A DNA stretch of 64,000 nt from a virus (IMGVR_UViG_3300037455_000462:41908-105907), one strand, 5' to 3'; positions 4,407 to 59,062 are shown, numbered from the stretch's first letter. A program made the numbers and translations. The notes: a model not told the origin generated them from the sequence alone.

Positions 4407-4414
4407 TATTTATA
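4407..4414 (-). promoter_or_regulatory. T4-type late promoter TATAAATA
   Basis: Exact motif 30 nt upstream of the ORF start at 4377. Confidence 0.7.
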
Positions 4415-5156
4415 TGTTACGGGGATTCTGTTTCTGAAATTCATTTATGTCAACTTTAACCCAATCAAGATGTTCGCGTTTGTCCATCAAAATGTACCAA
4501 TGACCGCCGTAGTCACTTTCCTCCCAACACAACTTCGCGTAATAGATGGTTTTTCCGTGTATATCCATCAGAGGGTATCTGAACATTCTGTCGGATGAAA
4601 CGTCTGTTGTCAATTCGCATTTGTCGTAATATTTCGCGGGGACATAATCCGCCCTCGCATAAACACGGAATCTTCTGTACTTCATCAAAGAACGCAATCC
4701 GTCCGCAATATCGTCATAATCGTACAAATGAAATATCTCGTATTGTTCCTCCGTATTCATAAACGCAGGCATAATGCAGCAGAACGCATCAGAACGCTTA
4801 TGCCCAACGACATACCCGTTCTTTTCGAGTATGCGTATAGCATTGTCTATGTCGTTGGAGTTGACGGGAAACTTCCAAACCTCGTGTTCTATGTCGCAGT
4901 CTTTGTCGATAAACACGCCGCCGACCCGTGACTTGAACACGGAGTATTCCGTGTTTTTGTCATCAATGTCATACCACATAAGACTTGAAACGAGTGCCAC
5001 GGCGACCGCTTTCATCCTCTCCACGTTGTTATTCGGCATTTCGTTGAATTTGTTGAATTCGTCCTTTTTGATTTTCAGATTCGACAATGACGCTCCGAGG
5101 TTTCCGAGCCTCTCCTTGCTTATGGGCTTTATGCCGAGTTTTTTTACGCCTTCCAT
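4410..5156 (-). CDS. Hypothetical protein with KLGIKPISKERL leader
   Basis: 248-aa ORF; N-terminal motif shared with ORFs at 28799, 29219, 43364 and 59062. Confidence 0.7.
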   Translation of the reverse strand: MEGVKKLGIKPISKERLGNLGASLSNLKIKKDEFNKFNEMPNNNVERMKAVAVALVSSLMWYDIDDKNTEYSVFKSRVGGVFIDKDCDIEHEVWKFPVNSNDIDNAIRILEKNGYVVGHKRSDAFCCIMPAFMNTEEQYEIFHLYDYDDIADGLRSLMKYRRFRVYARADYVPAKYYDKCELTTDVSSDRMFRYPLMDIHGKTIYYAKLCWEESDYGGHWYILMDKREHLDWVKVDINEFQKQNPRNI

Positions 5157-5704
5157 ACAGCCAACTTTATTTCAACCTCCTGCGCACGGAATGTGCAGTT
5201 AAATGTTTTCATATCAATCGTATTGTTTGAATAGTTGAAGTCGAGACCGTCTATGCTCGTGAACAAGACGTTCTTGTATTCAATGGTGAACGCCTCGTAC
5301 CCGTTTCCGTCAAAAATGCGCATAAACGGAACACCGTTTATGAACTTGTCGTTTGTTGACGAATAGTAGTAGTAGAACAAGTCGAGCATAAGAAAATAGT
5401 TTATGAACCCGTCATACAACTGCTGCGTGATTGTAAACTCCTTCTGCATCAGTTTCTCTGGCGATGCCGCCGAGCGGTATATCCTTGAATACGGGGTCTT
5501 TCTGTCGTATTGCTCGACCACATCGAACTGCACGTTCTGCATATTGAACCCTTGTATTCCGTAGTTCACATAGTCTATGCAGCGTCCGAACATATTGCCT
5601 GGGATTCTCTCCAAATACGGCATATACTTGTCTTCAATTTCTTGTGGAATGAGCGTCTTCGCAAAGAAGAACTCAAACATATTGTTTCTTGCGGGTTGTA
5701 ACAT
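5144..5704 (-). CDS. Putative tail tube/baseplate junction-type structural protein
   Basis: 186 aa, beta-rich pattern reminiscent of the T4 gp19/gp54 family; late promoter at 5721. Confidence 0.45.
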   Translation of the reverse strand: MLQPARNNMFEFFFAKTLIPQEIEDKYMPYLERIPGNMFGRCIDYVNYGIQGFNMQNVQFDVVEQYDRKTPYSRIYRSAASPEKLMQKEFTITQQLYDGFINYFLMLDLFYYYYSSTNDKFINGVPFMRIFDGNGYEAFTIEYKNVLFTSIDGLDFNYSNNTIDMKTFNCTFRAQEVEIKLAVWKA

Positions 5705-5720
5705 AAGTAAGAGTTTTCTT

Positions 5721-5728
5721 TATTTATA
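5721..5728 (-). promoter_or_regulatory. Late promoter TATAAATA
   Basis: Exact motif upstream of ORF 5704. Confidence 0.7.
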
Positions 5729-5737
5729 ACAATAAAA

Positions 5738-5768
5738 GAAAAACGCCCTCGGATTGGGGGCGTTTTTC
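5738..5768 (-). terminator. Rho-independent terminator
   Basis: GAAAAACGCCC...GGGCGTTTTTC inverted repeat downstream of ORF 5801..6001. Confidence 0.7.
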
Positions 5769-5800
5769 ATAGAATGGAAAATATTTGAAAGTTACAGAAA

Positions 5801-6001
5801 TTACTTATTTTCTTTTTTATCTTTGGTGTCATTCCCGTTTTCGGTTTGGGGGGCTTGGTTTTCCTCCTCTGCGAAATAGTTGGGAACGAGGATGTTTACA
5901 GCCGCGTAAACCAACGCAGCGTCTTTCAATGAGTATATGCCGCTTTGCTGTCCGATGACAGCAGCCTGCACAAGTACGTTAATTGCTTCTTTCTCGTTCA
6001 T
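5801..6001 (-). CDS. Small hypothetical protein
   Basis: 66-aa ORF tightly packed after the Hsp20 gene. Confidence 0.65.
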   Translation of the reverse strand: MNEKEAINVLVQAAVIGQQSGIYSLKDAALVYAAVNILVPNYFAEEENQAPQTENGNDTKDKKENK

Positions 6002-6003
6002 AG

Positions 6004-6444
6004 TTATTGGATTTCAATTTCGTGTGACGCTTCTTCTTCCTTTTCCTTTTTAGGCATATAGATTTCAAGAACGCCGTTCTTGAGTTGCGCCTTGATGTCC
6101 TTTGCATTAACTTCGTCACCAAACGGGATTTTCACGTCCTCGTCCTTTTTCATATTGACGAAATTGCCGTTGATGTCCTCCCTTGCGTAGATACGCACAT
6201 AGTTGATACCGTTGGAAGTCTTGGCGATTTCAATGCCGATTTGCTCTCTGTCGATTTCGGGGATAAGCAGCAAAGCGACTTTCATATCGTCATTATCCTC
6301 GATTTTCAGTCGCATACTGTCGTAACAGCAAGCGCAGTTGTTTTCGTTTCCTGCTGAAAAAAGTTTGTTGAAAGCCTCGTTGAAACCTTCAAAATTAGCA
6401 CCGAGTGCCGTAAACAAGTTGTCTAAATCTCTAATGTAGCCCAT
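6004..6444 (-). CDS. Small heat shock protein (Hsp20)
   Basis: IKAQLKNGVLEIYMPK and C-terminal IEI motif. Confidence 0.85.
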   Translation of the reverse strand: MGYIRDLDNLFTALGANFEGFNEAFNKLFSAGNENNCACCYDSMRLKIEDNDDMKVALLLIPEIDREQIGIEIAKTSNGINYVRIYAREDINGNFVNMKKDEDVKIPFGDEVNAKDIKAQLKNGVLEIYMPKKEKEEEASHEIEIQ

Positions 6445-6569: not shown

Positions 6570-7916
6570 TCAGTTCTTTATCGTTTTCTTCAATGACTTC
6601 AAGTCATCCAAATACATATCAGACGGAACTTTCTTTCGCATTTCTTCAAGTTCTACCTTTTTGGAATCCCGCTCTTTTATGAGTTCGGCATACCTTTCCT
6701 TGGTAAGCGAATAAATCGGCATATTTATCAGATAGTCGAATGAATTTGAAACCTTGTCGAACTTGTTTGCTTCAAGCCAATCGCAGATTTCCTTTTTCGG
6801 GACGTTGTTCACTTTCAGTTTCTTGTCGATTATGGACTTCACGAAACGCGCCTTGTTCGTCAGCACCATAAGTTCCTTTTCGAGAACGCCTATCAGATAT
6901 TTCTTGCGTTTGTCATACCAAGTGAGTCGGTAGTCGCAGAAATAAGGAACGATGTCTTCCGCCTTGTCGAATTGCAGAAGCCTGCCGTTCTCGTCAAGTG
7001 TAACGACATTCTCCGTTTCCGAACTGTTTATGTGAAGCACGCTTTCGAGTTTGTTGGATTCGATAAGTTCCTTCAGTGCCGTGCGTGTGAATTTCACCAC
7101 ATAATCGACAACTGACGAACTGTTGTTGTCATAATCCACAATCACCTTTTTGTCAACAAGTGAGTCAAGGTATTCCTCGTATTTCTCGAATGTTATGGAC
7201 GGCGGCAAATCCGTCACCCTAACGGTGGTTGTGTTTAACACCTTGTAAACACCCGATATGAGCCACTTGTTTTTGTTTTCCTTATCCCTTGTGTATGTGC
7301 CTCCGAACTCCGCGAGCCAAGGCTTCAGTTCCTTCGGCTTTTTTCCGTTGAGATGCGCTATGCAGGCATCAACAACCTCAACGGGATTTCTGTTGAGTAT
7401 GTTCGTTGAATACCCCACCGCTATGCCTGGACTTCCGTTCAGCAGCAACGTTGGAACTATCGGCAGAAAAAAGTTCGGCTCTACTACATAGCCTTCCTCG
7501 ATTCTGTTTTCAAGCAACTCAAAGTCCTTGTATAAAAGTCTGAAATTTTTGGAAAGTTTTGTTCCGATATAACGGGGCGCACCCGCTGACGGAACACGGA
7601 GGCTTCCGTACTGACCGTAGCCTTCAAGCAGCGGCAGGCTGTTCTTGAAAGTCTGCCCCATATAGGTTATCGCATCGTACATACTTCTGTCGCCGTGCGG
7701 GTACAACGCCATAGACGAAACATATCCGCCGAATTGAAAAACCTTCATAGATTTCTCGTTCCCGTTTTTCCAAATCTTGTTCGCAACAAAAACAATCTTG
7801 CGCTGAACGGGCTTGAACCCGTCAATGCAACTCGGTATAGCCCTGTCCTCAACAACCGATTTCGCGAACAGCCGTTGGTCAACATCCAAAAAGTTGTCAA
7901 TAGTCCTTAATTTCAT
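6570..7916 (-). CDS. DNA topoisomerase II medium subunit (gp52/GyrA-like)
   Basis: RAIPSCIDGFKPVQRK, YPHGD, APRY active tyrosine, GIAVGY. Confidence 0.95.
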   Translation of the reverse strand: MKLRTIDNFLDVDQRLFAKSVVEDRAIPSCIDGFKPVQRKIVFVANKIWKNGNEKSMKVFQFGGYVSSMALYPHGDRSMYDAITYMGQTFKNSLPLLEGYGQYGSLRVPSAGAPRYIGTKLSKNFRLLYKDFELLENRIEEGYVVEPNFFLPIVPTLLLNGSPGIAVGYSTNILNRNPVEVVDACIAHLNGKKPKELKPWLAEFGGTYTRDKENKNKWLISGVYKVLNTTTVRVTDLPPSITFEKYEEYLDSLVDKKVIVDYDNNSSSVVDYVVKFTRTALKELIESNKLESVLHINSSETENVVTLDENGRLLQFDKAEDIVPYFCDYRLTWYDKRKKYLIGVLEKELMVLTNKARFVKSIIDKKLKVNNVPKKEICDWLEANKFDKVSNSFDYLINMPIYSLTKERYAELIKERDSKKVELEEMRKKVPSDMYLDDLKSLKKTIKN

Positions 7917-8464
7917 CTTACATTCTCCTTATACGAGTTCTTAAACAATGTGTCGAACACGCCACCGTAATAGCCTTCCTCCGCCATAATGGACAAAGCC
8001 TCCCTATAATCCCACTCGCCTATTACATTGTAGTCGCCTTTGTCCTTGCTGTCAAGCAGAAAATCCACGGTGACATCAAAATAATAGTCGCCTATTTTGT
8101 TGAAAGCGTGGTCTATCGGTATTCCTATTACAGTCATATATCCCTCCACGTACTTAACTTCGGGGTTTTCCATAACCTGCCCGTTGACGCTCAACTTACC
8201 GATTGATTCAAGTATGTTGGCTGCGTGGAGGGAATTGCTGTAACATTCCTTTTTCTGAAATCTCCCGTACTTGCGAAGTCTGTCGATGACATCGGACTCG
8301 AACAAATCGTAAACCGAATGAATCTCGATTGGGCGCAGGCAGGAGAGTTTCCTTTCGAAATATTCCTTTTGGTAGCCAGAAGAAAGTCGGGCGAAGTTCT
8401 TCAGCATATTCGCCGTAGAATGGTCGTCCGACTCCGTTATAAACTCAATATATTTCTTAACCAT
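7913..8464 (-). CDS. Hypothetical late protein with capsid-targeting-like N-terminus
   Basis: Begins MVKKYIEFITE; TATAAATA at 8483-8490. Confidence 0.65.
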   Translation of the reverse strand: MVKKYIEFITESDDHSTANMLKNFARLSSGYQKEYFERKLSCLRPIEIHSVYDLFESDVIDRLRKYGRFQKKECYSNSLHAANILESIGKLSVNGQVMENPEVKYVEGYMTVIGIPIDHAFNKIGDYYFDVTVDFLLDSKDKGDYNVIGEWDYREALSIMAEEGYYGGVFDTLFKNSYKENVR

Positions 8465-8485
8465 TACAAATCCAATTTGTCATAT

Positions 8486-10063
8486 TTATACCTGCTTGGA
8501 AGCATCGGTAAACAAATCGAATTTGAGTGTCGGGTATGATTCATAATTTGTTATCTTGATGTCGCTCGGCTCTAATCTCAAAAGCCTCTCGTATTCATCG
8601 TGGAACGGGTCAAAGGAGAGGTATATCGGAATCTCAATACCAGCCGCACCGAACAAATACGGATTTCTGTTGAGCATACGCTTCACGCCGTCAATGTGGT
8701 TTTTGTAGATGTGTGCGTTTCCGAGAGAACCTCCGAGCATTTTCGGAATCATATTCACTGTTTTTGCGATTACACACAGCATAACGGCGTAACTCATTAT
8801 GTTGAACGGAACGCCCAAAGCCATATCGCAGGAACGCTGAATCCAACGCAGACTCAAATAATGTTTCGGCACACCATATTCTTCCATAGCGTCCTCCTCG
8901 TTGCCTTCTCTGTCATCTTCCTCGCGTATCATTCTTTCTTCAAGAATGCGCTTCCTTTCCTCGTATGGAATAGGCTCTGTGTAGAACTCCATAGCGTAGT
9001 GGCAGGGCGGCAAAGCCATCTCGTCCATACGCTTCGGATTCCAAGCGGAAACAACAAGCCGTCTGTTGTTCGGGTCGTTTTTCAATTTGTCCATAACCTC
9101 TTTCAGTTGGTTGATTCCGCTGTTGTCGAAATCAGTCCACTGCGAACCGTAAATCACGCCGACATCGCCGTAAGTGTAAACTTTGTCACCGAACTTGGTG
9201 GATGAACCGAATTCCACGTTCTTCATAAAAGTATCGAAGTCAACAACCTCGCATCCGTCAGCCTTCGCAAGCCTCAAATAGTATGCGTATGCGTCCTTGT
9301 CCCAAATATGAACGTTCCGCTCGACAAGATATTTGATGTTCTTGCAGCCCTGCAAAAACCAAACAAGTTCAACGACAACAGACTTCAGAGCCATTTTCTT
9401 CGTTGTGATAACTGGCAGACCCTTGCGCAAGTCAAAATGCAGGTGGGCATCAAACAGACTTCTCGCCGTGCCGACCCTTGTCGGTGTGTCAACGCCGTTT
9501 TCAAGAATGTCGCGAAGCAGGTTGAGATACTGCACGTCACAATGTGATTCGTGGCGTTTGCGGAAAATATTCAAAAAAATGCACTCATCGTCCTTATACA
9601 CAATGTCCTTATGATACAGATTGGTGTTCAGCATATCAAAATAAGGAAAATACGTGTCGAACTTGTTTTCGTAGCCTTTCTTTATGATGCTCAAATAAAC
9701 GGTGTCAGCCAAGTCGTTGTCCATCAACTCCTTGAAAAGTTTAGCACCACCGATATAATACACTTCCTTGTAACCCTCGGCTTCAACAACGCTTTCGGCT
9801 TCCGCGATGCTGCCGACTATCCTCGGCATATTCTCATCCGTGGCGTTCATAGGCGCATAGTTCTTGTCACTTGTGACAATGACATTAAATCTGTCTTTTA
9901 GGGGATGTCCTATTGATTCATAGGTCTTTCTACCCATAACAACGGCGTTGCCTTTTGTCAGTTCGACAAAACGCTTCATATCCGTTTTGTTTTTCCAAGG
10001 CATACCGCCTCCAATCCCGATTCCTCCATCGGGGCTTGCTGCTGCAACAATGTTTCTAATCAT
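8486..10063 (-). CDS. thyA: Bifunctional dihydrofolate reductase-thymidylate synthase
   Basis: DHFR motifs MPW, VVMGRKTYESI, IGGA; TS motifs MALPPCH, QRSCD, GVPFN, AHIY. Confidence 0.95.
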   Translation of the reverse strand: MIRNIVAAASPDGGIGIGGGMPWKNKTDMKRFVELTKGNAVVMGRKTYESIGHPLKDRFNVIVTSDKNYAPMNATDENMPRIVGSIAEAESVVEAEGYKEVYYIGGAKLFKELMDNDLADTVYLSIIKKGYENKFDTYFPYFDMLNTNLYHKDIVYKDDECIFLNIFRKRHESHCDVQYLNLLRDILENGVDTPTRVGTARSLFDAHLHFDLRKGLPVITTKKMALKSVVVELVWFLQGCKNIKYLVERNVHIWDKDAYAYYLRLAKADGCEVVDFDTFMKNVEFGSSTKFGDKVYTYGDVGVIYGSQWTDFDNSGINQLKEVMDKLKNDPNNRRLVVSAWNPKRMDEMALPPCHYAMEFYTEPIPYEERKRILEERMIREEDDREGNEEDAMEEYGVPKHYLSLRWIQRSCDMALGVPFNIMSYAVMLCVIAKTVNMIPKMLGGSLGNAHIYKNHIDGVKRMLNRNPYLFGAAGIEIPIYLSFDPFHDEYERLLRLEPSDIKITNYESYPTLKFDLFTDASKQV

Positions 10064-13627: not shown

Positions 13628-14575
13628 TTATTTATTCAGTTTTCTTATTAAAATTCTTTTATAAACGCCGTTTCCGTCAATGGTAAACTGACCTCCTTCA
13701 ACGCCAAACCCACCATTTCCGTCCACATCGTGTTCGTGACCGACCAACTCAAACTGCCTACTGTTGTACTTATCCATAAAGGTAACGGGTACACCCATAG
13801 TGCCTTCATAGTCCATAGGTATATCCTCAACCTTATCGACATTGATTGCGTTGTAATTGTCGTACACAGAATATATATACGGGTCGAATTTTTTGTTTGT
13901 TTCCAAGAATTCGGGTTCAAATCCTATGTCCATATTGGTGAACCATCTTATTCCCCTAACGCGGATTGTCCTGCCCGTTTCCGTTTCACCGCCGCACGCA
14001 CCATCATAGGTTTCATACCCTTTCGGAACGTCAAACACACATCCCCCGCATCTTATACTGACACCAAGGCGTATGTCCCCGCGCTTGAAATATTGGAAAA
14101 GTTCCTTTGTCGTGACGGCATTGATGTTGCCAAGCACGACAAATTCCTTGCCGTGTTTCATAACAAGCGAAACAAATTCTCTGAAAAGCGAGAACGGGGG
14201 ATTCGTCACCACAACGTCAGCATCCTTCAAAATCTTGACACATTCCATTGAACGGAAATCGCCGTCACCATCCAAATATATGACCGATATATTATTGCCG
14301 TCATATTCAGCGCATACTGCGCGTTTTGAATCGGCAGTCAGAAGATTGCGTTCCACATAGCAGGAAGCAATAAGTTTCTTCAAGTCGAGTTCGGCGAAGC
14401 GGTCTTTAAAATAAGCAAAGAACTTACTGACACGATAGTCATCGCAGTTGCAATACACAACCTTGCCTCTGAAAAAATCGGCATAGTGAGCCAATTCCTT
14501 CTCGATGTCGGAATACCGAGTGTAGAACTCGTCCTTTTTGTCCTTTCTCGCTATGTTAAGCCCGCTGTTGTCCAT
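13628..14575 (-). CDS. Adenine DNA methyltransferase, EcoRI-like family
   Basis: DEFYT, VYCNCDD, GDFRS, VTNPPFSLFREF. Confidence 0.9.
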   Translation of the reverse strand: MDNSGLNIARKDKKDEFYTRYSDIEKELAHYADFFRGKVVYCNCDDYRVSKFFAYFKDRFAELDLKKLIASCYVERNLLTADSKRAVCAEYDGNNISVIYLDGDGDFRSMECVKILKDADVVVTNPPFSLFREFVSLVMKHGKEFVVLGNINAVTTKELFQYFKRGDIRLGVSIRCGGCVFDVPKGYETYDGACGGETETGRTIRVRGIRWFTNMDIGFEPEFLETNKKFDPYIYSVYDNYNAINVDKVEDIPMDYEGTMGVPVTFMDKYNSRQFELVGHEHDVDGNGGFGVEGGQFTIDGNGVYKRILIRKLNK

Positions 14576-15309
14576 CAGAAAAGTTTTTTGTTTGCTTCAT
14601 CAATGCGTTTGCTCGCAATGTCAAAATATTCCTGCACCAATTCAAACCCTATGAAACTGCGGTTGGTATTCACGCAGGCTACGCCCGTAGTGCCGCTGCC
14701 CATACAGTTATCAAGAACGATACCGTTTTCGGGACAATACGAGCGTATTAGGAATTCCATAAGTTCAACGGGTTTCTGTGTTGGATGGATTTGGTCTTGT
14801 CTTCTCCACATCTGCGGAAAATCAAGAACGGTGGACGGATGCCTTGTTCCTTTGTTATCGGTCTGAACACCTTTTATTCCGTATTGCATATTATTCACGT
14901 TATTTGGTGTATATTTTCTGCTGTACGGCTTACCTTCACCCATCTGTGGTTCATAATAAGACGCACTTTCACCAAATACAAGAATCATCTCGTGCTTTTT
15001 GAGTGGCATATATTTCGCAGTAAGCGGAGAGCCGCACTTCGACTTCTTCCACACCATATCGTATCGGAAAAGCCTCTCGTTTGACAACGCCAACTTGAAC
15101 GCAAAAAGACCCGCACCGAAAAGGACAATGTTGCCTTTCGGCTTGACTATGCGTTCATAGGCAGACCACATATCTTCAAACGGAATCACAACATCCCATC
15201 GGTTAGCCGTTGTTCCGTATGGAAGGTCACACAGAACCAAATCGACACTGTTGTCCGCAATGCCTTTCATCAGTTCTATGCAGTCCCCGTGTTGCAGGTC
15301 AATCATCAA
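14575..15309 (-). CDS. N4/N6 DNA methyltransferase (beta class)
   Basis: DLPY, HPTQKP, LDNCMGSGTT. Confidence 0.92.
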   Translation of the reverse strand: MMIDLQHGDCIELMKGIADNSVDLVLCDLPYGTTANRWDVVIPFEDMWSAYERIVKPKGNIVLFGAGLFAFKLALSNERLFRYDMVWKKSKCGSPLTAKYMPLKKHEMILVFGESASYYEPQMGEGKPYSRKYTPNNVNNMQYGIKGVQTDNKGTRHPSTVLDFPQMWRRQDQIHPTQKPVELMEFLIRSYCPENGIVLDNCMGSGTTGVACVNTNRSFIGFELVQEYFDIASKRIDEANKKLF

Positions 15310-16025
15310 AACAGACCTCCTTTCGGCGTGCTAATTTCATCAACGACACGTTTGTTAGCCATATCGCAATATGCTTCGTCCAATTCAAACCCGATATATC
15401 TCCTATTGCTTTTCAACGCGGCTATCGCGGTAGTGCCGCTGCCCATAAACGGGTCAAGCACAACTTCGTTTTCCAACGAACTGCACTCGATAAGCGTCTG
15501 CATAAGCCCAACGGGTTTCTGTGAATTGTGTATGTTAGAACCGTCCTCGTTTTTGTCCTTCGTGTTTTGGAACGAAAGAAGGTCTGATACACCGCAATCG
15601 TATATCGGTCGCCCGCTTCCCTTCCGCAAGAAGAATATATGCTCGACTTGACCCATATAGTATGTTCCGCATATCTTCGTCCTTTTGTCCCACACAAGCA
15701 ATTTCACGAAATGGAATCCGCTGTTTTTCACAGAATCGAAGAAATGCGGGAGGTTCACGTTGTTGCACATAATGTAACAATGCGAACCGTCTTTGAGTAC
15801 ACGGTAGAATTCGGGCAGATAATCGTCAATGTCAATGTCATTGTTCTCGAATATCCTTCCTTTCATCGTTAGTTCGGATTCATAATGTCCGCCCATAGTC
15901 CCGTTATTGCCCTTTGGCGTAACCCTATATGGAGGGTCTGTAGCAATAAGGTCTATACTTCCATCGGGTATCTGCTTCATACCCTCAAGGCAGTCCATAT
16001 TATATATCCGATTCAGTTCAAGCAT
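15306..16025 (-). CDS. N4/N6 DNA methyltransferase (beta class)
   Basis: DPPY, HNSQKP, LDPFMGSGTT. Confidence 0.92.
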   Translation of the reverse strand: MLELNRIYNMDCLEGMKQIPDGSIDLIATDPPYRVTPKGNNGTMGGHYESELTMKGRIFENNDIDIDDYLPEFYRVLKDGSHCYIMCNNVNLPHFFDSVKNSGFHFVKLLVWDKRTKICGTYYMGQVEHIFFLRKGSGRPIYDCGVSDLLSFQNTKDKNEDGSNIHNSQKPVGLMQTLIECSSLENEVVLDPFMGSGTTAIAALKSNRRYIGFELDEAYCDMANKRVVDEISTPKGGLF

Positions 16026-16053
16026 TTCTTATATATAATAAAAAATCAACAAA

Positions 16054-16857
16054 TTAAAATAGAGTTTTTGGCTTTTCTTCCAATCCGTCTATGTTGTCAA
16101 GCAGCACTTCGATTATATGATACTGTTGTAGTTTCTTCATAGCGATGCAGGATTTATACGATTTCCAATCAAAGGTCTTGAGCAGGTTCAGTATCTCGTC
16201 CTTTTTGCGATGCGTGACCTTTATTTTGTATTCACCGCTGTAATGCTCGCCGTCATTCAGAATCTTCCCCATAGTGGCATCACCCCAACAACACATACGG
16301 ATATCGTAGTCGGTTATCGAATCATAACCCGCTTTGTCTTGGCGGTAAATTGTAACACCGTCCAATTGAAATTTGCGCTGCTTGTTGAGACCGTGCCTCG
16401 GTCGCCTATAGATGTTGAAACAGCACCAAAGGTTCTTGCCAGAATAGGATGCGTAACCCAAGTCCTCCGAATAAATCAAATCAAATTTATACAGCCGAAC
16501 CGTATTGTTCAACTGACCTATCGGGAGAATAAAGGCGATATAGTCACATATATCCACAGCCTTGTTGAAGAATTTGATTGCAAGACCCATTTTATCACCA
16601 TAGGGCGGATTTCCTATCACAAGCCTGCCTTTTTTATAAGGTATATCCATTTCAAGGAAGTCACCGCACTCTATGCCGTCCGCTTCGGGTTCTATGTCAA
16701 TAGCCCTGCATTCCAATAAATTGGAGAAAGAACCGCTGCCCGCCGAAGGTTCTATTATGTCGGTGATGTTATCACGACCTATAACCTCGAATGTCTTGGC
16801 GACAAGTCTTTCAGCCAAATCTGTCGGCGTATAATATTTGTCCAACCTTATTTTCAT
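16054..16857 (-). CDS. N6-adenine DNA methyltransferase (gamma-type motif order)
   Basis: YYTP, EPSAGSG, GNPPY. Confidence 0.88.
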   Translation of the reverse strand: MKIRLDKYYTPTDLAERLVAKTFEVIGRDNITDIIEPSAGSGSFSNLLECRAIDIEPEADGIECGDFLEMDIPYKKGRLVIGNPPYGDKMGLAIKFFNKAVDICDYIAFILPIGQLNNTVRLYKFDLIYSEDLGYASYSGKNLWCCFNIYRRPRHGLNKQRKFQLDGVTIYRQDKAGYDSITDYDIRMCCWGDATMGKILNDGEHYSGEYKIKVTHRKKDEILNLLKTFDWKSYKSCIAMKKLQQYHIIEVLLDNIDGLEEKPKTLF

Positions 16858-17798
16858 TTCGGACGCACGGGTTGGTTGGCTAAATTATCTCTGTTTTTAA
16901 GAACCACAATGCACTCGCTCGGCAAAGCCTCGCACTCGCCAAAGTCGTTCCACAGTTTAACCATATCCTCTGTCGGCTCTTCGTACACCTCGTATGCCGT
17001 TGTCGCGAATGTTTCGGAATCCGTCCACAGAACAATGTCGCCTTTGCCGATTATATTGCCGTTGATGTCGTATGCGTGGTCTTGCGTGAACGGCTCTGAC
17101 GAAGCCGACCTAACGGCGAGATGCGTGTTGCGGTCAATCCAATACTTGTGGATTGTGTAACCGTATTGTTCCAAGAAACCGAATGTCTTTCTGTGGCGTT
17201 CCTCGGTCATACCAAATACGCCCACATCGAAGCACTCGAAAATGATTGGCGGGAAATTGTTACTCACTATGGTCTTTCTCGCGCCGCACAAAACCTCAAA
17301 CTCGTGATTCTCAACGTCAATCTTGATAAGACCGATGTTCACAAATCCGTAACTGTCAAGGGTTTTTGCATTGACTATGGGCGTGTATTCATCCACGTTA
17401 AGCGAGTCAAAACCGTTGAATCTGACTTCCTTTTCTTTGTTCGAAAGAAAATCCATATACACGTCAATGTGTTCGGATTTCTCCCACAGCAGAGCGTTGG
17501 CACACAGTGCATACGCGCTTTCCTTGTTAGGCTCGAATGCGTATGCGTGTACGAAATTGGTATCCCAACAATACTCGCCGAGGTTTGCGCCGACATCTAT
17601 GATGCACTTGCTGAAATCAAAGAAACCGTCCTCGTTTCTGTTTATCTTGTTTATGCCGTCAACCTCAAGACACAAAGGAACGGGGTAATGGTCGGGGTAG
17701 TTGCTTTTCAAGCAATTAACATCCCAATCGCGCATAATCACGGAGTTCTTCGGTATTCTGACTGGAAACTTGTTGTATTCCTTGTAATAAAGTTCCAT
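16854..17798 (-). CDS. FkbM family methyltransferase with C-terminal extension
   Basis: IDVGANLG, AFEP, IKIDVE. Confidence 0.85.
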   Translation of the reverse strand: MELYYKEYNKFPVRIPKNSVIMRDWDVNCLKSNYPDHYPVPLCLEVDGINKINRNEDGFFDFSKCIIDVGANLGEYCWDTNFVHAYAFEPNKESAYALCANALLWEKSEHIDVYMDFLSNKEKEVRFNGFDSLNVDEYTPIVNAKTLDSYGFVNIGLIKIDVENHEFEVLCGARKTIVSNNFPPIIFECFDVGVFGMTEERHRKTFGFLEQYGYTIHKYWIDRNTHLAVRSASSEPFTQDHAYDINGNIIGKGDIVLWTDSETFATTAYEVYEEPTEDMVKLWNDFGECEALPSECIVVLKNRDNLANQPVRPK

Positions 17799-17799
17799 A

Positions 17800-18663: not shown

Positions 18664-18665
18664 AA

Positions 18666-19094: not shown

Positions 19095-19095
19095 A

Positions 19096-27770: not shown

Positions 27771-27838
27771 AAGAAAAAAATTTTACAATAGAATATAATA
27801 AAAAAATCCGAAATAATCAAACACCTATGCACATTTCT

Positions 27839-43379: not shown

Positions 43380-43413
43380 TATTTATATGTATGTTGTTTC
43401 GCCCATATAAATA
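43380..43413. promoter_or_regulatory. Divergent pair of late promoters
   Basis: TATAAATA on minus at 43380-43387 and on plus at 43406-43413. Confidence 0.7.
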
Positions 43414-46400: not shown

Positions 46401-48987
46401 TAGCGGCATTGATTGGAAAACTGTCGGCAAGATGGCAGGACTGATTATGCTGTTCGGTGCTGAATTCGCGGCGATAGGTCCAGTATCACCACTGATACTT
46501 ATGGCTGACGCTGCAATAGGCGTTATGGGCGGCTCGCTCTATTCAATAGGTTTGGGCATAGGCAGGTTCGCAGGAGAAATCAACAAATCCCGTGTAGGTG
46601 TCAAGACCATATTGAAGATGGCGGGCATAATCGGAACGTTTGCAACGGAATTCTCCGCATTGGCTTTGGTATCCCCGTTTGTTATGGCGGGTTCTGCCGC
46701 AGGCATCTCTATGGGTGCTGCGCTGAATAGCATAGGAAAAGGTTTGCAGGAGTTCGCCGCAGCCAAACTCCAACCGAATAGCGTTGAAACGTTCTCGAAA
46801 ATGATGATAACGCTCCGCGACACTTTCGCTGTTATGGCGGGAAGCGGCGAGGCAGGAGGCAAGGGAGGCATACTTGGTACGCTCATCAAGGGAACTATCG
46901 CGGCGTTCAGTCCGAGCGGTGTCGAAAAGGGTATCGCGGTTTCAAAGAAAATGGGTGACGCGCTCTACAGCATAGCAAAAGGACTGATGCAGTTCCAAAA
47001 CGGAATAGGCGACCAAATAACCGACAAGGAATTTATGCAGCAGTTCGCCGATTCCGTTTCGACAGCCGTGTCCTCAATATCGAGCGCGTTCAGAACCGTG
47101 GGTGAAAGTTGGGTCAGCATCAAGTCGCCCGAACCGAGAACCGTGTTCGGCAAACTGTTCCGCAGGCTTACGGCGGGTGTGTTCGATGTCAAGACGAAAA
47201 ATTCTGTCGAGGAAGGCATAAGGGCTACCCGCAATATGGGCGACAGTCTCGCAAGCATAGCGAAAGGTCTGAAGGAATACAAAGACCTCGTTCCGAATGA
47301 AAAGGACGCAGGATGGGTAGGCGCGGTCGCCAACAACATCGCCATAATGCTTGACGCATTGGTCGCCCCGCTTGCGAAGTTCGGTACTGTCGAGGAATCA
47401 TTCGAGGTTGTCAAGTCACAATCTTCCAATATCTCGCAGGGCTTCGCCTCCATACAGAGTGCGGTTGACAGCACAGTAAACTACAACAGCAAGAAAGTTG
47501 ACATTGCCCGCGCTATGGAGAATGTCGGTCAAATCGGAACTTTGATTTCGGGTATGGCTGAAGGTGTCAAGACGTTCTCGCAACTCAACCCGAAGAAAGA
47601 CATCGGAACGGCATACGACATCAATGACGATTGGACTTTGACGGGCAACGGCGGAGGTATGATTGGAAACATACAGCAGATGCTCTGCGGATTCTTCCCC
47701 GCTTTCATACTTCTCGGAAAGAAACTTGAGGAAACGGGTACTTATGAGGAAATCATAGAACCCGCCGAATACGGTTTCTTGGGCAACACGAAGAAGGCGG
47801 CTAAAACCGAGAAGAAATCCTATGTCGGTATGGCGATAGATGCCGCCTCCAACATAGGCACTATAATCAGAGACCTCGCGGAGGGTATGAAAACCTTTAA
47901 CGAGTTGTACCCCGATTCTTCAAAACTGACTGTCGGCGTGGGCAATGTTATCAAGGCAATCTCAACCATATTCACGGCATTCGGTAACATAGGATATGTC
48001 ATCGAAAGCGGTAGCGGCGGTGTGCAACCCGTTCTGCCAAACGGCGCGGAAAACGGTTTTGACTTTGGTATGATTCACGCCAATGTGAGGAGACTTCGCT
48101 ATTCGGCAAACGGCGGCGATATGTCCGAAACATTCGAGAAAGTGAATTCGAATATAAGCAATATCATAAAAGGCTTGGGTGAGTCTATGAACACCATTAA
48201 GGGTCAGATGGGTACGGTGAGCGAAATCAGCAAGAATATGCGCGGATACATATTCTCCATAATGAATATGTCAACCGCAGCATTTGTGTTGAGCGACCAC
48301 GAGGCTGGTGATTCAGCCCTTATCTACGAAGGCAACAAGATAGAGGCATACGAATTGGGCGCATTTGACTTATTCATCGCAAAAAGCGCGGACGAGAACG
48401 CTGCGCAGATGAAGAAAGTCGTGAACAAGGTTGCCACTATGGGCGATACCATTATGAAGATTCCGAAAGACGCAGGCAAGAAGTTCACCGTGTTCACACA
48501 AGACCTCGTTAAGGGTATGAACCAACTTGCGGCTACACGCAACAACGTGACCGCCGCAACCAAGTTCATCGACAGTCTGACAAAGGCGAAAAACGAGCAG
48601 GTGTTTGAGAACATCGCGTCCAACACGGAACGAATCGCGCAGGCTTTGAACTCCATAAGTGTCAACACTATGCAACCATACGCTGAAATGATTGCGGGTA
48701 TGGGAGAAATGGCGAAGAACGCTTCTAATGCGAAGAAGATTATGGACGAGATACGCGACCTCATCGAGGATATGGTTGACAAAATCGGTGAACTCCGTAA
48801 CGGCGGAGGCGGCAGTTCTGACAACAACGGAAGCGGCAACAAACCGCAGACCGTCATTCCTCAACAGAAACCTCAACCTACACCTCCTCAACCTCAACAG
48901 AGAGTCAAGGCTGACGTTTCGTTTGACAAGAACACAATCGATGCGTTGAAGAAACTTACACAAGCAATAAACGACAAAATATTGTAA
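43438..48987 (+). CDS. Tape measure protein
   Basis: 1849 aa, Ala/Gly-rich, tandem hydrophobic helical repeats; late promoter. Confidence 0.75.
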   Translation: MGGKPATISDLFTPMQAIQTCMESNHKEISSSIATLNESVLGCSKSMGSVSKSFKRTVENAKTQTVSSIKELNKSVKNAIKDATNAIAKSLSDGMSGVAAASAAAASASAAPMGAIGEAMQQNAIVMNNMLKEVTAIGKSVSQLKKSVKKNANSDKKNVGDKLKEGAAPKKEAAPQKSGKFQGLKDLGEAASLFSELSMKDAVLMKTKVQKVLAAAKEMEDFGKDFDAKNAEELAKVLATLGKSAASFTGYLASVALIAPLALVTAKLLNPTISSVVEAVEPIADEDVNKYDGAAITLESLAKGTVKFVAYLGLGAVFAPFALATALLMNPTIKLMVKALDPIADTEANKYDGAAVTLEAMASGSLKFLASMALSVVLAPVAMVGAGLFALLLLETRAVFGIMAKKETTRDMRRASNNLDKMSGAALMFEASMALSTILAPVAMVGVALSTLVIGGSATLFNAIGDAKISRNIRRGAITLEWMSIGILGYTLSLLATTMILRYLITGGGEKVDWMNIVAVASALPVFGLMVGSAFVFNEIGMASTSIAKGSLAVMLMGASTVLFTLSLLVTYMITKSMVGDIFKDGKFDIKNVVALASILPVFGLMLGANAVFSRIGNEKSVKDTLMGGLSVIVMSVSLISFAGAMWVTHQITKNIISKGDKTDLWAIVADVAVFALMLGGNYVFRRLGKEKSVKETVAGGVSVVAMSVGLVTFAGAMWVTHQMTKNIISNANGSDIGALVADVAVFALMLGGNYIFRRLGKEKTVKESLMGLASIAAMSVGIIAFSGAMWVAHKIAKQIVGDADAKSIVTTLGIFALMTGSVFLFKFAGKNFKDIAKGTGSMVLMAVGIGAFGYGLSFFTDAVKDTKWWQLLAMPALVLAFGVEFAALGYLVEFIALGAVSVAAMGAALVPFGWGVGKYAGYLKEAGLDWKTVGQMAGLIMMFGVEMSLLGPLSPLILMADAAMGVMGATLVAFGFGVNSYATSVKDSGIDWKTVGKMAGLIMLFGAEFAAIGPVSPLILMADAAIGVMGGSLYSIGLGIGRFAGEINKSRVGVKTILKMAGIIGTFATEFSALALVSPFVMAGSAAGISMGAALNSIGKGLQEFAAAKLQPNSVETFSKMMITLRDTFAVMAGSGEAGGKGGILGTLIKGTIAAFSPSGVEKGIAVSKKMGDALYSIAKGLMQFQNGIGDQITDKEFMQQFADSVSTAVSSISSAFRTVGESWVSIKSPEPRTVFGKLFRRLTAGVFDVKTKNSVEEGIRATRNMGDSLASIAKGLKEYKDLVPNEKDAGWVGAVANNIAIMLDALVAPLAKFGTVEESFEVVKSQSSNISQGFASIQSAVDSTVNYNSKKVDIARAMENVGQIGTLISGMAEGVKTFSQLNPKKDIGTAYDINDDWTLTGNGGGMIGNIQQMLCGFFPAFILLGKKLEETGTYEEIIEPAEYGFLGNTKKAAKTEKKSYVGMAIDAASNIGTIIRDLAEGMKTFNELYPDSSKLTVGVGNVIKAISTIFTAFGNIGYVIESGSGGVQPVLPNGAENGFDFGMIHANVRRLRYSANGGDMSETFEKVNSNISNIIKGLGESMNTIKGQMGTVSEISKNMRGYIFSIMNMSTAAFVLSDHEAGDSALIYEGNKIEAYELGAFDLFIAKSADENAAQMKKVVNKVATMGDTIMKIPKDAGKKFTVFTQDLVKGMNQLAATRNNVTAATKFIDSLTKAKNEQVFENIASNTERIAQALNSISVNTMQPYAEMIAGMGEMAKNASNAKKIMDEIRDLIEDMVDKIGELRNGGGGSSDNNGSGNKPQTVIPQQKPQPTPPQPQQRVKADVSFDKNTIDALKKLTQAINDKIL

Positions 48988-53915: not shown

Positions 53916-55052
53916 ATGATGTACACATTGCTTATAGACGGACACAACTTTTTGTTCAGAACGATGTATGTGTTTCCGAGCAAGAAAGGCGAACTTATGC
54001 TTTCGACTGACGAATCTCGGAAATTGTATGTGTCCAAACTCGAACAGAATCTCAATGCTGTTCTCCGCGACTTGGAGAATATCGTTGACAGATGCGTGTT
54101 CATTATGGACTCGGCTTCTTGGAGAAAGTCGATAGAGTCCGATGTCGATTACAAGGGAACTCGCCATCAAGATGAAACCGTTGATTTCAACGGTCTTGAC
54201 AAGTGTGTAGCCGAATTCACGGAGATTGTGAAAAACTACAACGTGACGGTTTCCAAGACAAAGAAAGCGGAGGCTGACGACCTTATATTCTATTGGTCTA
54301 ACGTCCTCACGGCAAAGGGGATTCCCGTGATTATGTACACGAGTGACAAGGATATGCTCCAACTTGTGCGCAGCGTGAACGGCGTTCCGTCAGTCCTATA
54401 TTCTGATGTCACTAAAAAAATGTACACCCCGAAGGATTTTCTGAAAGGAAAGGATGTTTCGGAAACCATTTACGAGGCGTTTACAAACAAGCACAAGATT
54501 GATGTGTTTGATGAAAAAACGCAGTTCGAGTATCTCTTGAAGAAACGCAGTCTTGAAATGATTGAAGTCGATGCTGACGAGTGTCTTTTCACAAAGGTCA
54601 TTGTCGGCGACAAATCCGATAATATCTCGTCAATTTATTCATATGTCAAGAATGGGAAAACATATAACGTGACGGAGAAGAAAGCGGAGAAAATCCTTGA
54701 GAATTTCAAGGATAAGGTCGGCGGTCTGAATGCCGAATACCTATTTCTTGACGATACCGTGAACGCCCTTGCGCAATCCTGCTGCGAGGTTGTCGGCGTT
54801 GACTGTGCTGACAAGATAGCGGAGAATATCAGACGGAATACTAAATTCATCGTGCTGAATAGGAATGTGATTCCAGAGGATGTGGTTGAGGGAATGCACG
54901 AGGATGTCAAGGTTCTCGCAAAAACTATGCGCAGGGTCAAATACAACGCCTTGAAACCGCAGGAATCCGTTGTCAAGAAAACGGAGAGGATTTTCAAAGG
55001 TGTTGATGATTCCGATATGTCGTTTATCAAAGAAAAGAAAACACTGTTCTGA
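53916..55052 (+). CDS. 5'-3' exonuclease / T4 RNase H-like
   Basis: LIDGHN, YKGTR, EADD, SDKDMLQL, GDKSDNI. Confidence 0.92.
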   Translation: MMYTLLIDGHNFLFRTMYVFPSKKGELMLSTDESRKLYVSKLEQNLNAVLRDLENIVDRCVFIMDSASWRKSIESDVDYKGTRHQDETVDFNGLDKCVAEFTEIVKNYNVTVSKTKKAEADDLIFYWSNVLTAKGIPVIMYTSDKDMLQLVRSVNGVPSVLYSDVTKKMYTPKDFLKGKDVSETIYEAFTNKHKIDVFDEKTQFEYLLKKRSLEMIEVDADECLFTKVIVGDKSDNISSIYSYVKNGKTYNVTEKKAEKILENFKDKVGGLNAEYLFLDDTVNALAQSCCEVVGVDCADKIAENIRRNTKFIVLNRNVIPEDVVEGMHEDVKVLAKTMRRVKYNALKPQESVVKKTERIFKGVDDSDMSFIKEKKTLF

Positions 55053-55582
55053 TGAAAAAGTATGATGAATTTGTAGCGGAAAAAAACTACAATAAGTACA
55101 AGTCCAACAAGTATGAAGATGAGGTGAAGTCAGCCGTGTACGACTATGTTAGCGGATTGACATCATCGGTCAATGACGATTTGAGAAAAGGAAAGGAAGT
55201 CCCGTCAATCACGAATGTTTTGGACAAAGCGTTTGTTGAACGGAAAAAATTGGATGTTTATCGTACCGTTGATTGGTCGTATATGGAAAATGTGTACGGG
55301 ATAACGGAGGAAAACATCAAGGATAAAATCGGAAGCGAGATAACCAACAAAGGCTATATGTCAACGGCAAGCATTATGGAATCCCCTTGGGGCAGCAAAT
55401 GGTCGGAGAATGAGTTGGTTGTGCATATAGTCAGCGACAAAGAATACCCTTGTGTTGACATAAACAAGATGTTTGACGCGGATGAGATTGATTGCGAGGA
55501 ACAAATGGAAATTCTTGTTCCGAGAAACACGACAATCCGCTTGGTTGACGCTGAAAAAAAAGTTTGGCGGCAAGTTCTGTGA
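55052..55582 (+). CDS. VIP2/Alt-like ADP-ribosyltransferase, probably frameshifted near the C-terminus
   Basis: VYR, GYMSTAS, EQMEILVPR; N-terminus MKKYDEFVAE. Confidence 0.8.
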   Translation: MKKYDEFVAEKNYNKYKSNKYEDEVKSAVYDYVSGLTSSVNDDLRKGKEVPSITNVLDKAFVERKKLDVYRTVDWSYMENVYGITEENIKDKIGSEITNKGYMSTASIMESPWGSKWSENELVVHIVSDKEYPCVDINKMFDADEIDCEEQMEILVPRNTTIRLVDAEKKVWRQVL

Positions 55583-56862: not shown

Positions 56863-57550
56863 TCCGCTTACGCCCAATGATGTGGCGAAAATGATGGTGA
56901 GCGTTTCGGAAATGGGATTTCGGCTTTACCCGAAATCCTATAAGACCGATGAACAGATTGTCAAGATACTGAAATTGAGGAATTCTCGGTTGATGTATCG
57001 AAACGAGTTTTTCGTGCTTCTCGAAATGCACTATGGCAGTGTGTCCAATTGGTTCGACTTGTTCAGAAAACGTTTCGGCGATTCGGTTTCGATAGACGAG
57101 CATTATGACGAATTGGTCGCCAATTTCTCATCACCCGAAATCATAGCGTATTACAATATCTACCCGAATTTGAGTTATTTCTTTTTCGAGTTGATGGACT
57201 GCGAGGACGAAAGGGACGGCAGGGTCAAGAACAAGACGGTTATGAACTTGCCAGACACCGAGATAAGGTCTATGTATGTCAACCTGCGAAACCTCTATAC
57301 GCAGGAAACGGTTGACAAACTCAACAAGTTCCTAATTGCGAAAAATATGATGACGGACAACGCTATGTTCAAGAAGCCCGCCGTGTTGAGCCTTGACATA
57401 CCAGCGTTGCTTGACCTTCTCGGCGAGTTTGTGGGTCGGTACAAGGACGAGAAGTTCGCTGACGAGATTTATTCGGCGATATCGTTTATCGACATAGACG
57501 AACTGTCAAAAGTCCGCATAACCCTGCTTACGGATTATCCACATTTATAA
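56855..57550 (+). CDS. Hypothetical protein
   Basis: 231-aa ORF in operon. Confidence 0.7.
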   Translation: MSNPLTPNDVAKMMVSVSEMGFRLYPKSYKTDEQIVKILKLRNSRLMYRNEFFVLLEMHYGSVSNWFDLFRKRFGDSVSIDEHYDELVANFSSPEIIAYYNIYPNLSYFFFELMDCEDERDGRVKNKTVMNLPDTEIRSMYVNLRNLYTQETVDKLNKFLIAKNMMTDNAMFKKPAVLSLDIPALLDLLGEFVGRYKDEKFADEIYSAISFIDIDELSKVRITLLTDYPHL

Positions 57551-57568
57551 ATAGGGAAATTTAATTGT

Positions 57569-58201
57569 ATGAAATTGTTATCTGATTATACAAATCCGAA
57601 GCAGGTAAAGGATAATTACGGAACTCACTCTGACGAATATCCCGACATAAACGAACTTGAGGACGGTATATACCGTGCGCTGTTCTATGCGTGGGTGTTT
57701 GAACTTGTTGACGGAAGGATGTTCAAGACACATTACGGTGTCAAACACGGAAGGCATTGTGCGAAAATGACAACATACCAAGTTGCAGGAGGGGAATTCA
57801 AGGAAGTCTCGTCATTTGAAAACGGTTGCACACAGCATATACTTGAATTGCCGAATGGCAAATATCTCGGCAGATGGTATGGCAGTTGCTTTGAATTGTC
57901 TGACGGCACTTGCTACAAAACCGATGTCGGTATAAGGTGCAGCCGCAAGTGCGCACCGTTGAAACCGTATGACGTGATTAACGGCGAACTGACTGAATCC
58001 ACGTTTGACAACGGATGCAAAATGCACATATCACAGTTGAAAGACGGCACATACAAAGGCAGATGGTACGCATATTGCTTTGAACTTGAAAACGGCGATT
58101 GCTATGCGACCGACATAGGTGTCCTTCGCAGCAGGGAACTCACGCCGCTTGGAACATATTCCGTAACAAACGGCGTTGTGAAAGAGTTGGAAATGTGCTG
58201 A
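57569..58201 (+). CDS. Late protein with three ~61-aa tandem repeats
   Basis: L.(D/N)G.Y...Y...FEL..G...T..G repeated three times; TATAAATA at 57546-57553. Confidence 0.75.
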   Translation: MKLLSDYTNPKQVKDNYGTHSDEYPDINELEDGIYRALFYAWVFELVDGRMFKTHYGVKHGRHCAKMTTYQVAGGEFKEVSSFENGCTQHILELPNGKYLGRWYGSCFELSDGTCYKTDVGIRCSRKCAPLKPYDVINGELTESTFDNGCKMHISQLKDGTYKGRWYAYCFELENGDCYATDIGVLRSRELTPLGTYSVTNGVVKELEMC

Positions 58202-58202
58202 A

Positions 58203-58236
58203 AAACAAAGGGCGGCATCAGCCGCCCTTTTTGTTT
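58203..58236. terminator. Bidirectional terminator
   Basis: AAAGGGCGGC-ATCA-GCCGCCCTTT between convergent genes. Confidence 0.8.
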
Positions 58237-58240
58237 GCCG

Positions 58241-58621
58241 TTAGTCTCTGTTCCTTTGTTTCCAAAACGAGCAGGTCATATCATATCTTGAAAACACGTC
58301 ATCAACGCTGCCCGCGCTGTGGCATATCAGTTGTCCTTCCAAAGTCCCGTATTCGGTTTCTATGGTGAGGTCGTATTTTCTGTATGCGGGTCTGTTGATG
58401 TCGGGTGAAGTGCCTGCGAAGTAGTTGTAGTACACGCCCGCGCTTGATATGACATCCTTGACACCCTTCACGGTGCGGAGTGCCGCTATGTGCGCTTGCG
58501 CGTTTTCCCAACCCATATCGCTGTAACTGTGCGTTGTGTATGGTTTTGACGCTGTGTAGAGTCTGTTGATTAACAGCGTGAGTTGGTAGTTGTTGTCTAT
58601 GCTGTTTTGTGTTGTGTTCAT
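58241..58621 (-). CDS. Hypothetical protein
   Basis: 126-aa ORF. Confidence 0.65.
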   Translation of the reverse strand: MNTTQNSIDNNYQLTLLINRLYTASKPYTTHSYSDMGWENAQAHIAALRTVKGVKDVISSAGVYYNYFAGTSPDINRPAYRKYDLTIETEYGTLEGQLICHSAGSVDDVFSRYDMTCSFWKQRNRD

Positions 58622-58624
58622 AGT

Positions 58625-59062
58625 TTATTTTGTTTTTCTCCTTTGTTTTCTGCTTACGGATTTGAGTGTTTCTATTTCGCGTTTGAATTCGCTGACATTA
58701 ACGATGAACGCACCCCAAGGACTTCCCCAACCTGGGTCTTCCTCCAACCCAATCATATAGTATTCGTTTTCTTTTTTGTAAATACCGAAAATGTTTTCGT
58801 TTTCTATTTCAAACTCGAATATTTTTGAATAGCCGTCCATTTTCAGAAATTCCAATGCCGCTTCCTCGTCATCTCCGAGTGTAGTCCATTCCGTATTGAA
58901 TGACACGCTTTCCCAATATGCAAACAGTTCCGTTTTGATTCTGTCCTCAATCCTGCCCTTGTTTTTCGTGTTGTTTACGATGTCCTTTATGCTATCGACA
59001 TTTATGGGCTTTATGTTCAGTTTCTCCAACAGAAATGATTTCGTGTTCAGTATTTTTGTCAT
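58625..59062 (-). CDS. Hypothetical late protein with E-KLNIKPI leader
   Basis: MTKILNTKSFLLE-KLNIKPI; late promoter at 59081. Confidence 0.7.
   Translation of the reverse strand: MTKILNTKSFLLEKLNIKPINVDSIKDIVNNTKNKGRIEDRIKTELFAYWESVSFNTEWTTLGDDEEAALEFLKMDGYSKIFEFEIENENIFGIYKKENEYYMIGLEEDPGWGSPWGAFIVNVSEFKREIETLKSVSRKQRRKTK

Follow-up and report, generated by a model that had tools for sequence, protein, structure and literature searches.

A two-part N-terminal tag, predicted to combine a T4-type capsid-targeting propeptide with a second conserved peptide, on unrelated late proteins of a large myovirus lineage

The capsid-targeting sequence (CTS) of phage T4 is the standard portable signal for loading foreign proteins into a phage head and has already been used for protein delivery. 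It has the sequence MKTYQEFIAE (PMC8442874), and the internal proteins found in T-even phages form a diverse set with only the CTS in common (PMC3012670, PMC9026906). Of its 10 residues, residues 8 and 10 govern processing, with L/I-X-E as the cleavage motif of the gp21 protease, and residues 4 and 7 govern targeting (PMC9026906). Here we describe a comparable tag of two parts on otherwise unrelated proteins encoded in a 64,000-nucleotide stretch of DNA, hereafter the window, which consists of bases 41908–105907 of a 105,907-bp IMG/VR virus contig (IMGVR_UViG_3300037455_000462; G000) rated as 33% complete by CheckV. The first part is a short leader ending in Glu and the second is a conserved peptide of 12 residues. 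Packaging, cleavage and ejection, like the role assigned to the second part, are our inferences from the sequence, and on balance we lean towards the tag being a T4-type capsid-targeting propeptide joined to a new, retained docking peptide.

As with the CTS of the T4 proteins IPI, IPII, IPIII and Alt, which is removed by gp21, the leader is a short putative propeptide found on unrelated, fast-evolving proteins. Its last residues are of the form hydrophobic-x-Glu and position P4 is aromatic, a relative (G001) encodes both an S77 protease and a Gp23 capsid protein, late promoters of the sequence TATAAATA are present here, and one of the leader bearers is, like Alt, an ADP-ribosyltransferase. There are also clear differences to T4. 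A conserved peptide of 12 residues follows the predicted cut, of a type that the T4 papers cited above do not describe, the bearers number 57–91 per genome compared to a handful in T4, the tag occurs at the joints of multi-unit proteins as well, and the cargo, known from sequence alone, is rich in leucine-rich repeat (LRR)-like and lectin-like modules.

Many internal head proteins, with paralogous families among them, are also a feature of the jumbo phages phiKZ, 201phi2-1 and SPN3US, in which a gp21-related protease cleaves after Glu and N-terminal propeptides are thought to target proteins to the prohead (PMC5694885, PMC10052503). Their propeptides however exceed 100 residues, share no common short tag and are cleaved at the motif (S/A/G)-x-E, and a common retained peptide has not been reported for them (PMC5694885, PMC10052503). 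With DarB of phage P1, an N-terminal signal of ~30 residues suffices to bring a heterologous protein into the myovirus capsid for delivery with the DNA (PMC9024508). This matches the role proposed here for a retained, uncleaved signal, but DarB is a single protein of the stepwise Dar assembly pathway, its signal has no sequence similarity to the tag and it is not carried by dozens of cargo proteins. Encapsulin cargo-loading peptides are likewise short linear peptides on unrelated cargo, which dock to the inner face of an HK97-fold shell; they are usually C-terminal, differ in sequence and act without a protease or DNA. Such docking is a possible working model for the second part of the tag. 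Diverse cargo sharing a CTS is of a kind already published; for the 12-residue peptide predicted to be retained, the scale of ~10% of the genes of G001, the tag as a polyprotein joint and the dominance of binding-type cargo, we found no description in Pfam, PHROGs and the literature searched. For the second segment, no description was found in the literature on capsid targeting sequences, prohead proteases, jumbo-phage ejection proteins and the T4 CTS, the peptide itself not having been used as a search term.

PHROG matches on the contig include a baseplate wedge protein (59133–60899; positions without a genome handle are those of the window), a topoisomerase II subunit and a Lon-like ATP-dependent protease, and these genes indicate a large myovirus with T4-like replication genes. 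Judging from gene content, the source is a large T4-like myovirus and, with a relative of 413 kb, a jumbo phage. A blastn search of 27800–31000 against 50,697 phage records gave zero matches, and no cultured phage in that set is alike at the DNA level. Using a degenerate DNA pattern for the core peptide, only four contigs besides the source were identified in IMG/VR. One of these, G001, has a length of 413,021 bp, is rated as 100% complete and is collinear with the contig at a nucleotide identity of ~71–86%; our own gene calls gave it 558 proteins. A second lineage with the tag, G002, was scanned beside these two.

In a six-frame scan of the whole contig, the core peptide was defined as K-L-N-I-x-P-(V/I/M)-(S/T)-K-(E/D)-R-L and was found in 18 copies in 15 proteins, with nine copies in the window. 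Additional to those first noticed were internal copies at 29753 and 30209 in the open reading frame (ORF) starting at 29219 and nine more copies upstream of the window. Chance occurrence is excluded, as the degenerate pattern had 3 exact matches in the window compared to 0.00 in 100 shuffles. The full form, namely a leader of 10–15 residues ending in Glu and then the peptide, is present in 13 of the 15 tagged contig proteins; the leader is absent from two (4410–5156 in the window and one gene outside it), and two contig ORFs hold internal copies. While the original prediction listed seven N-termini, G001 was found to possess 67 copies of the core peptide in 57 of its 558 proteins (~10% of genes), the tagged genes being spread over at least 10 separate clusters. 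The genome scan with a leader profile that it had proposed, conducted on the first 40 residues, gave 77 matches in G001 and 91 in G002. A 36-position profile searched against 1.84 billion cluster representatives identified 213 proteins at E ≤ 0.001, in nearly all of which the match begins at residue 1 or is repeated 2–4 times. The description of the tag as an N-terminal leader was too narrow, as it also marks the joints of multi-unit proteins.

All seven N-termini of the original prediction were recovered at their positions. The gene at 28799–29212 (+) encodes a tagged protein of 137 residues beginning ...KSFIGE-KMNIAPMTKDRL, with leader codons 1–13 at 28799–28837, a predicted cut after Glu13 and the retained peptide at 28838–28873 (+). 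It is a single copy of the unit repeated in the next gene, 29219–30583 (+), whose three-unit product of 454 residues begins ...QEYINE-KLNIAPVTKERL (leader 29219–29248). The three retained peptides of this ORF (29249–29284, 29753–29788 and 30209–30244; +) each occur directly after Glu (INE, VTE and LSE), and each heads one homologous unit of ~125 residues. A late-type promoter TATAAATA at 27839–27846 (+) lies ahead of 27863–28783, which is followed by 28799 and 29219 after gaps of 15 and 6 nt. The body of the 28799 protein had no match in a fold search of the PDB, and its AlphaFold2 (AF2) model has a predicted local distance difference test (pLDDT) score of 55–58 for residues 1–30 and of 80–90 for the body.

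On the opposite strand, 42621–43364 (−) encodes a 247-residue LRR-like protein with DUF285-type repeats that begins ...SEFVNE-KLDIKPISKKTL (leader 43329–43364, peptide 43293–43328) and has its own TATAAATA at 43380–43387 (−). The initial call of an LRR-like cargo is upheld by paralogues matching DUF285 and LRR_4; the AF2 model (pLDDT 90) gave weak PDB fold matches, every one of them an LRR protein. Similarly, the 145-residue protein of 58625–59062 (−) begins ...KSFLLE-KLNIKPINVDSI (leader 59024–59062, peptide 58988–59023) behind its own TATAAATA at 59081–59088 (−), and has no homologue in G001. Two genes possess a leader only. The first, 7913–8464 (−), encodes 183 residues starting with MVKKYIEFITE (8432–8464) and then SDD, has its own TATAAATA at 8483–8490 and retains the leader in its G001 orthologue. 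The second, 55052–55582 (+), encodes 176 residues starting with MKKYDEFVAE (55052–55081), and its assignment as an ADP-ribosyltransferase was substantiated by Pfam (ADPrib_exo_Tox, E 1.3e-9) and by a PHROG family of ADP-ribosyltransferases. Its start codon overlaps the stop of the preceding gene (53916–55052) and it has no homologue in G001. As originally stated, the bodies within the window are unrelated by BLASTP, with the 28799/29219 pair as the sole exception.

The second segment had been proposed to be a separate element, and this is what was found, as each part occurs without the other. The protein of 4410–5156 (−; 248 residues) begins with MEGVK and then KLGIKPISKERL (5106–5141), with neither a leader nor a Glu before the peptide, and its orthologue in G001, which is 42% identical and also leaderless, keeps KLKISPVTKARL. 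In these proteins the peptide is under selection independently of the leader and the Glu. G001 also encodes 10 leader-only proteins, in which Glu is followed by S/A/G in eight and by N or M in two. One of these, of 90 residues (MKTYSDFIGE...), has a weak match to phrog_7857 'internal virion protein' (E 0.0039, profile positions 1–63); the window proteins had no such match. In the AF2 models of two unrelated bodies, the cut is spanned by a short helix, the I-x-P stretch is extended and a further short helix is present, with a pLDDT of 54–75 for the first ~30 residues compared to 80–98 for the bodies. Given this low pLDDT and the separate occurrence of its parts, the tag behaves in the models as a flexible linear motif outside of the cargo fold.

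The gene 4410–5156 overlaps by 13 nt the end of the preceding late gene 5144–5704 (−; TATAAATA at 5721–5728), the product of which has a weak tail-tube PHROG match (E 2e-4). This overlap hints that the partner of the peptide could sit in the tail or exit path. ESM Atlas look-ups of the bodies of 4410–5156 and 58625–59062 and PDB sequence searches of the 2401–4377 and 5144–5704 proteins gave no usable identification. A further leader-only protein of G001 (155125–157332, −; 735 residues), beginning MNYIKTYDKFVNE|S..., possesses PGA_cap (E 2.7e-52) and MATCAP-like carboxypeptidase (E 1.1e-11) domains and is a candidate packaged enzyme.

It may be that the peptide is by itself a self-sufficient cargo-docking signal for one fixed virion site (inner shell, portal or DNA exit path), with or without the leader, which would load, retain and inject a changeable library of 60–90 small binding and enzyme modules, encoded singly or within polyproteins that the protease cuts. 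We consider this tentatively, as doubtful; if true, it would be the largest programmable protein-delivery repertoire known in any phage. It appears rather unlikely that the second segment lacks a function of its own, whether as the P' (downstream) side of an extended protease site or as a neutral spacer that came along with the leader. A P' half would agree with the peptide beginning immediately after Glu when cut sites are tabulated and with the predicted cut lying, by AF2, inside one short helix that spans both parts. The leader-only proteins however continue E|S, E|A or E|G, such that the protease should not need K-L-N-I, and 4410–5156 and its 42%-identical orthologue keep the peptide with no leader and no Glu. 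Nor would a spacer be as conserved as these twelve residues, of which I and P are invariant throughout 213 diverged clusters.

For the cut-site tabulation, copies were located by the core pattern without anything upstream of its Lys, and only then were the upstream residues counted. Position P1 is Glu in 180 of 181 N-terminal copies and in 46/46 internal copies (p 1.5e-53). Position P3 is I/V/L/M in 150/181 and F in 25 of the N-terminal copies, and V/I/L/M in 42/46 of the internal ones (p 2.5e-22). An aromatic residue at P4 is found in 129/181 N-terminal copies compared to 3/46 internal copies, the latter being the background level, and L/I at P9 (148/181) is not conserved internally. Internal joints thus keep P1 and P3 and drop the aromatic P4, which corresponds to T4 residue 7, meaning that the determinants of cutting are kept and the residue at one of the T4 targeting positions is lost. 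This pattern is as expected if joints need cutting alone, with targeting supplied once at the N-terminus. A contig gene of 129 residues, which stands alone and possesses its own leader, has 80% identity with unit 3 of a G001 protein of three units, in which only ...YVSE precedes the unit-3 peptide, and 97% identity with unit 2 of a further metagenomic protein. Such natural fission or fusion supports the joints as predicted cut sites. The likeness of the first segment to a Glu-ended T4 CTS, as first suggested, was corroborated by the 7/10 residues that MKKYDEFVAE shares with MKTYQEFIAE, by the gp21 motif and by the head genes of the relative, and in the features that can be read from sequence the first part largely agrees with a T4-type capsid-targeting propeptide.

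The head genes of G001 comprise a prohead protease, which matches Peptidase_S77 with 49.5 bits (cut-off 27), and a capsid protein of the Gp23 family (98.1 bits, above the Pfam cut-off). Directly downstream of the capsid gene (G001 62022–63818) are three tagged genes, and a same-strand array of tagged genes (49–60 kb) is located within 2 kb upstream of it. The protease ORF (G001:290916–292859, −; 647 residues) has an S77 domain followed in its C-terminal half by 12 tandem repeats of 14 residues. These are of the type HNDYLAE(K/Q)LxxNF, every one with a hydrophobic-x-Glu (L-x-E) cut motif, and the ORF resembles a fusion of protease and scaffold that would be processed to short peptides.

The TATAAATA promoter occurs 16 times in the window compared to 4.5 expected, mostly at 20–37 nt upstream of start codons, and the baseplate wedge gene is among those with such a site. 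Six of the seven genes first noticed are behind it, in keeping with the claim that most would be: it lies directly upstream of 8464, 43364 and 59062, and 5156, 28799 and 29219 are within operons behind one. Enrichment in late as opposed to early genes had been set beforehand as a test, and in G001 operons led by TATAAATA hold 39/56 tagged genes compared to 149/502 others (odds ratio 5.4, p 8e-9), with neither late promoters nor tagged genes in the region of 200–260 kb. By their promoter matches, the tagged genes are late genes.

With the T4-type propeptide and retained docking peptide that we favour, the leader (10–13 residues, typically M-x-I-L-x(3-4)-(Y/F)-(I/V)-x-E) would direct the protein to the scaffolding core of the prohead and would have at its end the (L/I/V)-x-Glu site at which the S77 (gp21-type) prohead protease cuts. 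The second part, K-L-N-I-x-P-(V/I)-(S/T)-K-(E/D)-R-L, starts at the predicted cut and would become the new N-terminus of the mature protein, where it would most likely dock to one common virion partner, to keep the cargo inside the filled head or to let it leave with the DNA. Small, fast-evolving modules would make up this cargo, many of them binding-type repeats (LRR/DUF285, Fib_succ_major) and some of them enzymes, each encoded either by a gene of its own that includes a leader or as a polyprotein unit with the tag at each joint.

Splitting the tagged proteins of the contig and G001 at each copy of the peptide gave 87 units, which fell into 27 BLASTP clusters (sizes 24, 19, 7, 6, 4 and 3, three pairs and 18 singletons); the bodies of the 15 tagged contig proteins alone formed about 11 groups. 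Multi-unit proteins mix units of different clusters. Among 125 representatives, Pfam identified DUF285 in 14, Fib_succ_major in 13 and LRR_4 in 2, with single matches to a MafB19-like deaminase and to pentapeptide repeats, and most of the tagged bodies have no family assignment. The median best-hit identity to G001 was 43% for tagged proteins compared to 75% for other genes (p 7e-6), and the tag itself is nearly constant while the bodies diverge, which recalls the diverse internal proteins of T-even phages with their common CTS (PMC3012670). Two further explanations for these proteins were tried and rejected. A secretion or lipoprotein signal was ruled out, as there is no hydrophobic core and no lipobox Cys. 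A diversity-generating retroelement acting on the lectin-like bodies was rejected, as no RVT_1 reverse transcriptase is detectable in G000, G001 or G002.

A number of points weigh against the favoured explanation. SPN3US has been reported to have ~50 head proteins (PMC5694885), fewer than the 57–91 distinct proteins per genome that would be packaged here. The mature units lack a basic character, their median isoelectric point of 6.1 being equal to background, and a basic DNA-binding cargo like the internal proteins of T4 was thus not seen. DUF285/LRR and Fib_succ_major domains are better known from cell-surface proteins than from injected effectors. Cluster look-ups of ten profile matches gave metagenomic sources in all cases, with 'hypothetical protein' as the best name. 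Short leaders (MKKYDEFVAE, MVKKYIEFITE) match the T4 targeting positions 4 and 7, whereas the long form of 12–13 residues keeps the aromatic P4 only and has its second hydrophobic position at P9, not at P7 as in T4. Pfam Peptidase_S77 and Gp23 are both absent from the contig, which is 33% complete. The ADP-ribosyltransferase gene at 55052, which has the most T4-like leader of all, has no TATAAATA upstream. Derivation of the tag as a copy of the protease repeat DYLAE(K/Q)L was also considered and set aside, the likeness of the cores (Y-I-x-E-K-L-N) being weak and non-significant (best E 0.43, 9 of the top 40 hits).

An exterior location, in which the tag would dock binding modules to a common anchor on the virion surface as decoration or accessory-fibre proteins, is improbable in our view. 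The recognisable bodies are indeed binding-type folds, as counted above, the tagged genes are late and flank the capsid gene, and the peptide-only gene 4410–5156 is coupled to a gene that is weakly tail-tube-like. Left unexplained however would be the conserved, cleavable leader of T4-CTS type, the joints that keep just the (V/I/L)-x-E determinants and the exchange of units between stand-alone genes and polyproteins. Cleavage would be needed for an anchor peptide buried between polyprotein domains to be of any use, and the T4 prohead protease is established to act within the shell (PMC9026906).

Alternatively, the peptide could dock a partner other than the capsid in the infected cell, such as a modifying enzyme with many tagged proteins as its clients, or could be an adaptor handle through which target-binding modules reach a phage machine, with the polyproteins processed outside of the head. 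A short conserved handle joined to a variable binding repeat would resemble substrate-adaptor families, and such a machine could be the Lon-like ATP-dependent protease encoded in the window at 35800–37794 (−; phrog_4871, E 3e-145). In G001, a CxxxCxxC protein, with a radical-SAM cysteine pattern as read by eye, is encoded at 286 kb near one of the tag clusters. No enzyme gene travels with the tagged genes however, which are in at least 10 separate clusters, and the T4-type leader, the protease cut rule and the late head genes would go unexplained; we thus give this possibility little credence. Gene duplication could have left the shared N-termini behind, or they could be a DNA-level recombination cassette by which gene bodies are shuffled, in either case without acting as a protein signal, but we regard this as highly improbable. 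Two large paralogous families (24 and 19 units) do make up half of the units and many tagged genes are in tandem arrays. Against this, conservation of the tag greatly exceeds that of the bodies, at least 20 groups without mutual BLASTP similarity have it at their head, and its synonymous sites are randomised (where two tags share a residue the codon is identical in 41% of cases, 0.41, compared to 38%, 0.38, expected from codon usage), leaving no DNA homology to drive exchange. These chance-level codon matches indicate that selection acts on the peptide, and exclude recent DNA recombination, gene conversion, a recombination cassette or an mRNA element.

Two other recurrent N-termini were observed in these genomes. 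M(T/S/A)HI(M/K)(K/R)I(D/N)E(M/F), which ends in I-x-E, heads eight otherwise different small proteins (G000 2771–3457, 7554–7862 and 14662–15201, outside the window, and G001 29861, 175983, 301758, 302551 and 344002) and may be another leader class; in G001 302551–303084 it is followed by ...CNE-RLNIQPVTKERL. MK(N/L)LS(D/Q)(Y/S)... is found on unrelated late proteins at 2401–4377 (−) and 57569–58201 (+) of the window and at G000 13691–14140 and 37259–37813. Elsewhere in the window, a late ORF of 1849 residues (43438–48987, +) has no PHROG match and lies in the only stretch with a G+C content above 50% (0.516 compared to 0.40–0.47). The ORF at 8486–10063 (−; 525 residues) has an N-terminus that by eye is like dihydrofolate reductase (DHFR), possibly as a DHFR-thymidylate synthase fusion, an ORF run at 13628–19824 (−) has N-termini that by eye are DNA methyltransferase-like, and 6004–6444 (−) encodes an Hsp20-like protein.

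This phage lineage appears to extend the CTS principle to about a tenth of its genes and to add a second conserved peptide that is predicted to survive maturation. As a specific marker, the profile of the tag allows such cargo to be catalogued in metagenomes. Should the tagged proteins be packaged, the rule of joints as cut sites would give a simple reading of cargo polyproteins in metagenomic phage genomes, and the retained peptide would be a new handle for the engineering of capsid contents and delivery. They would then represent an exceptionally diverse injected set, rich in fast-evolving LRR-like and lectin-like binders, which may target host defences.

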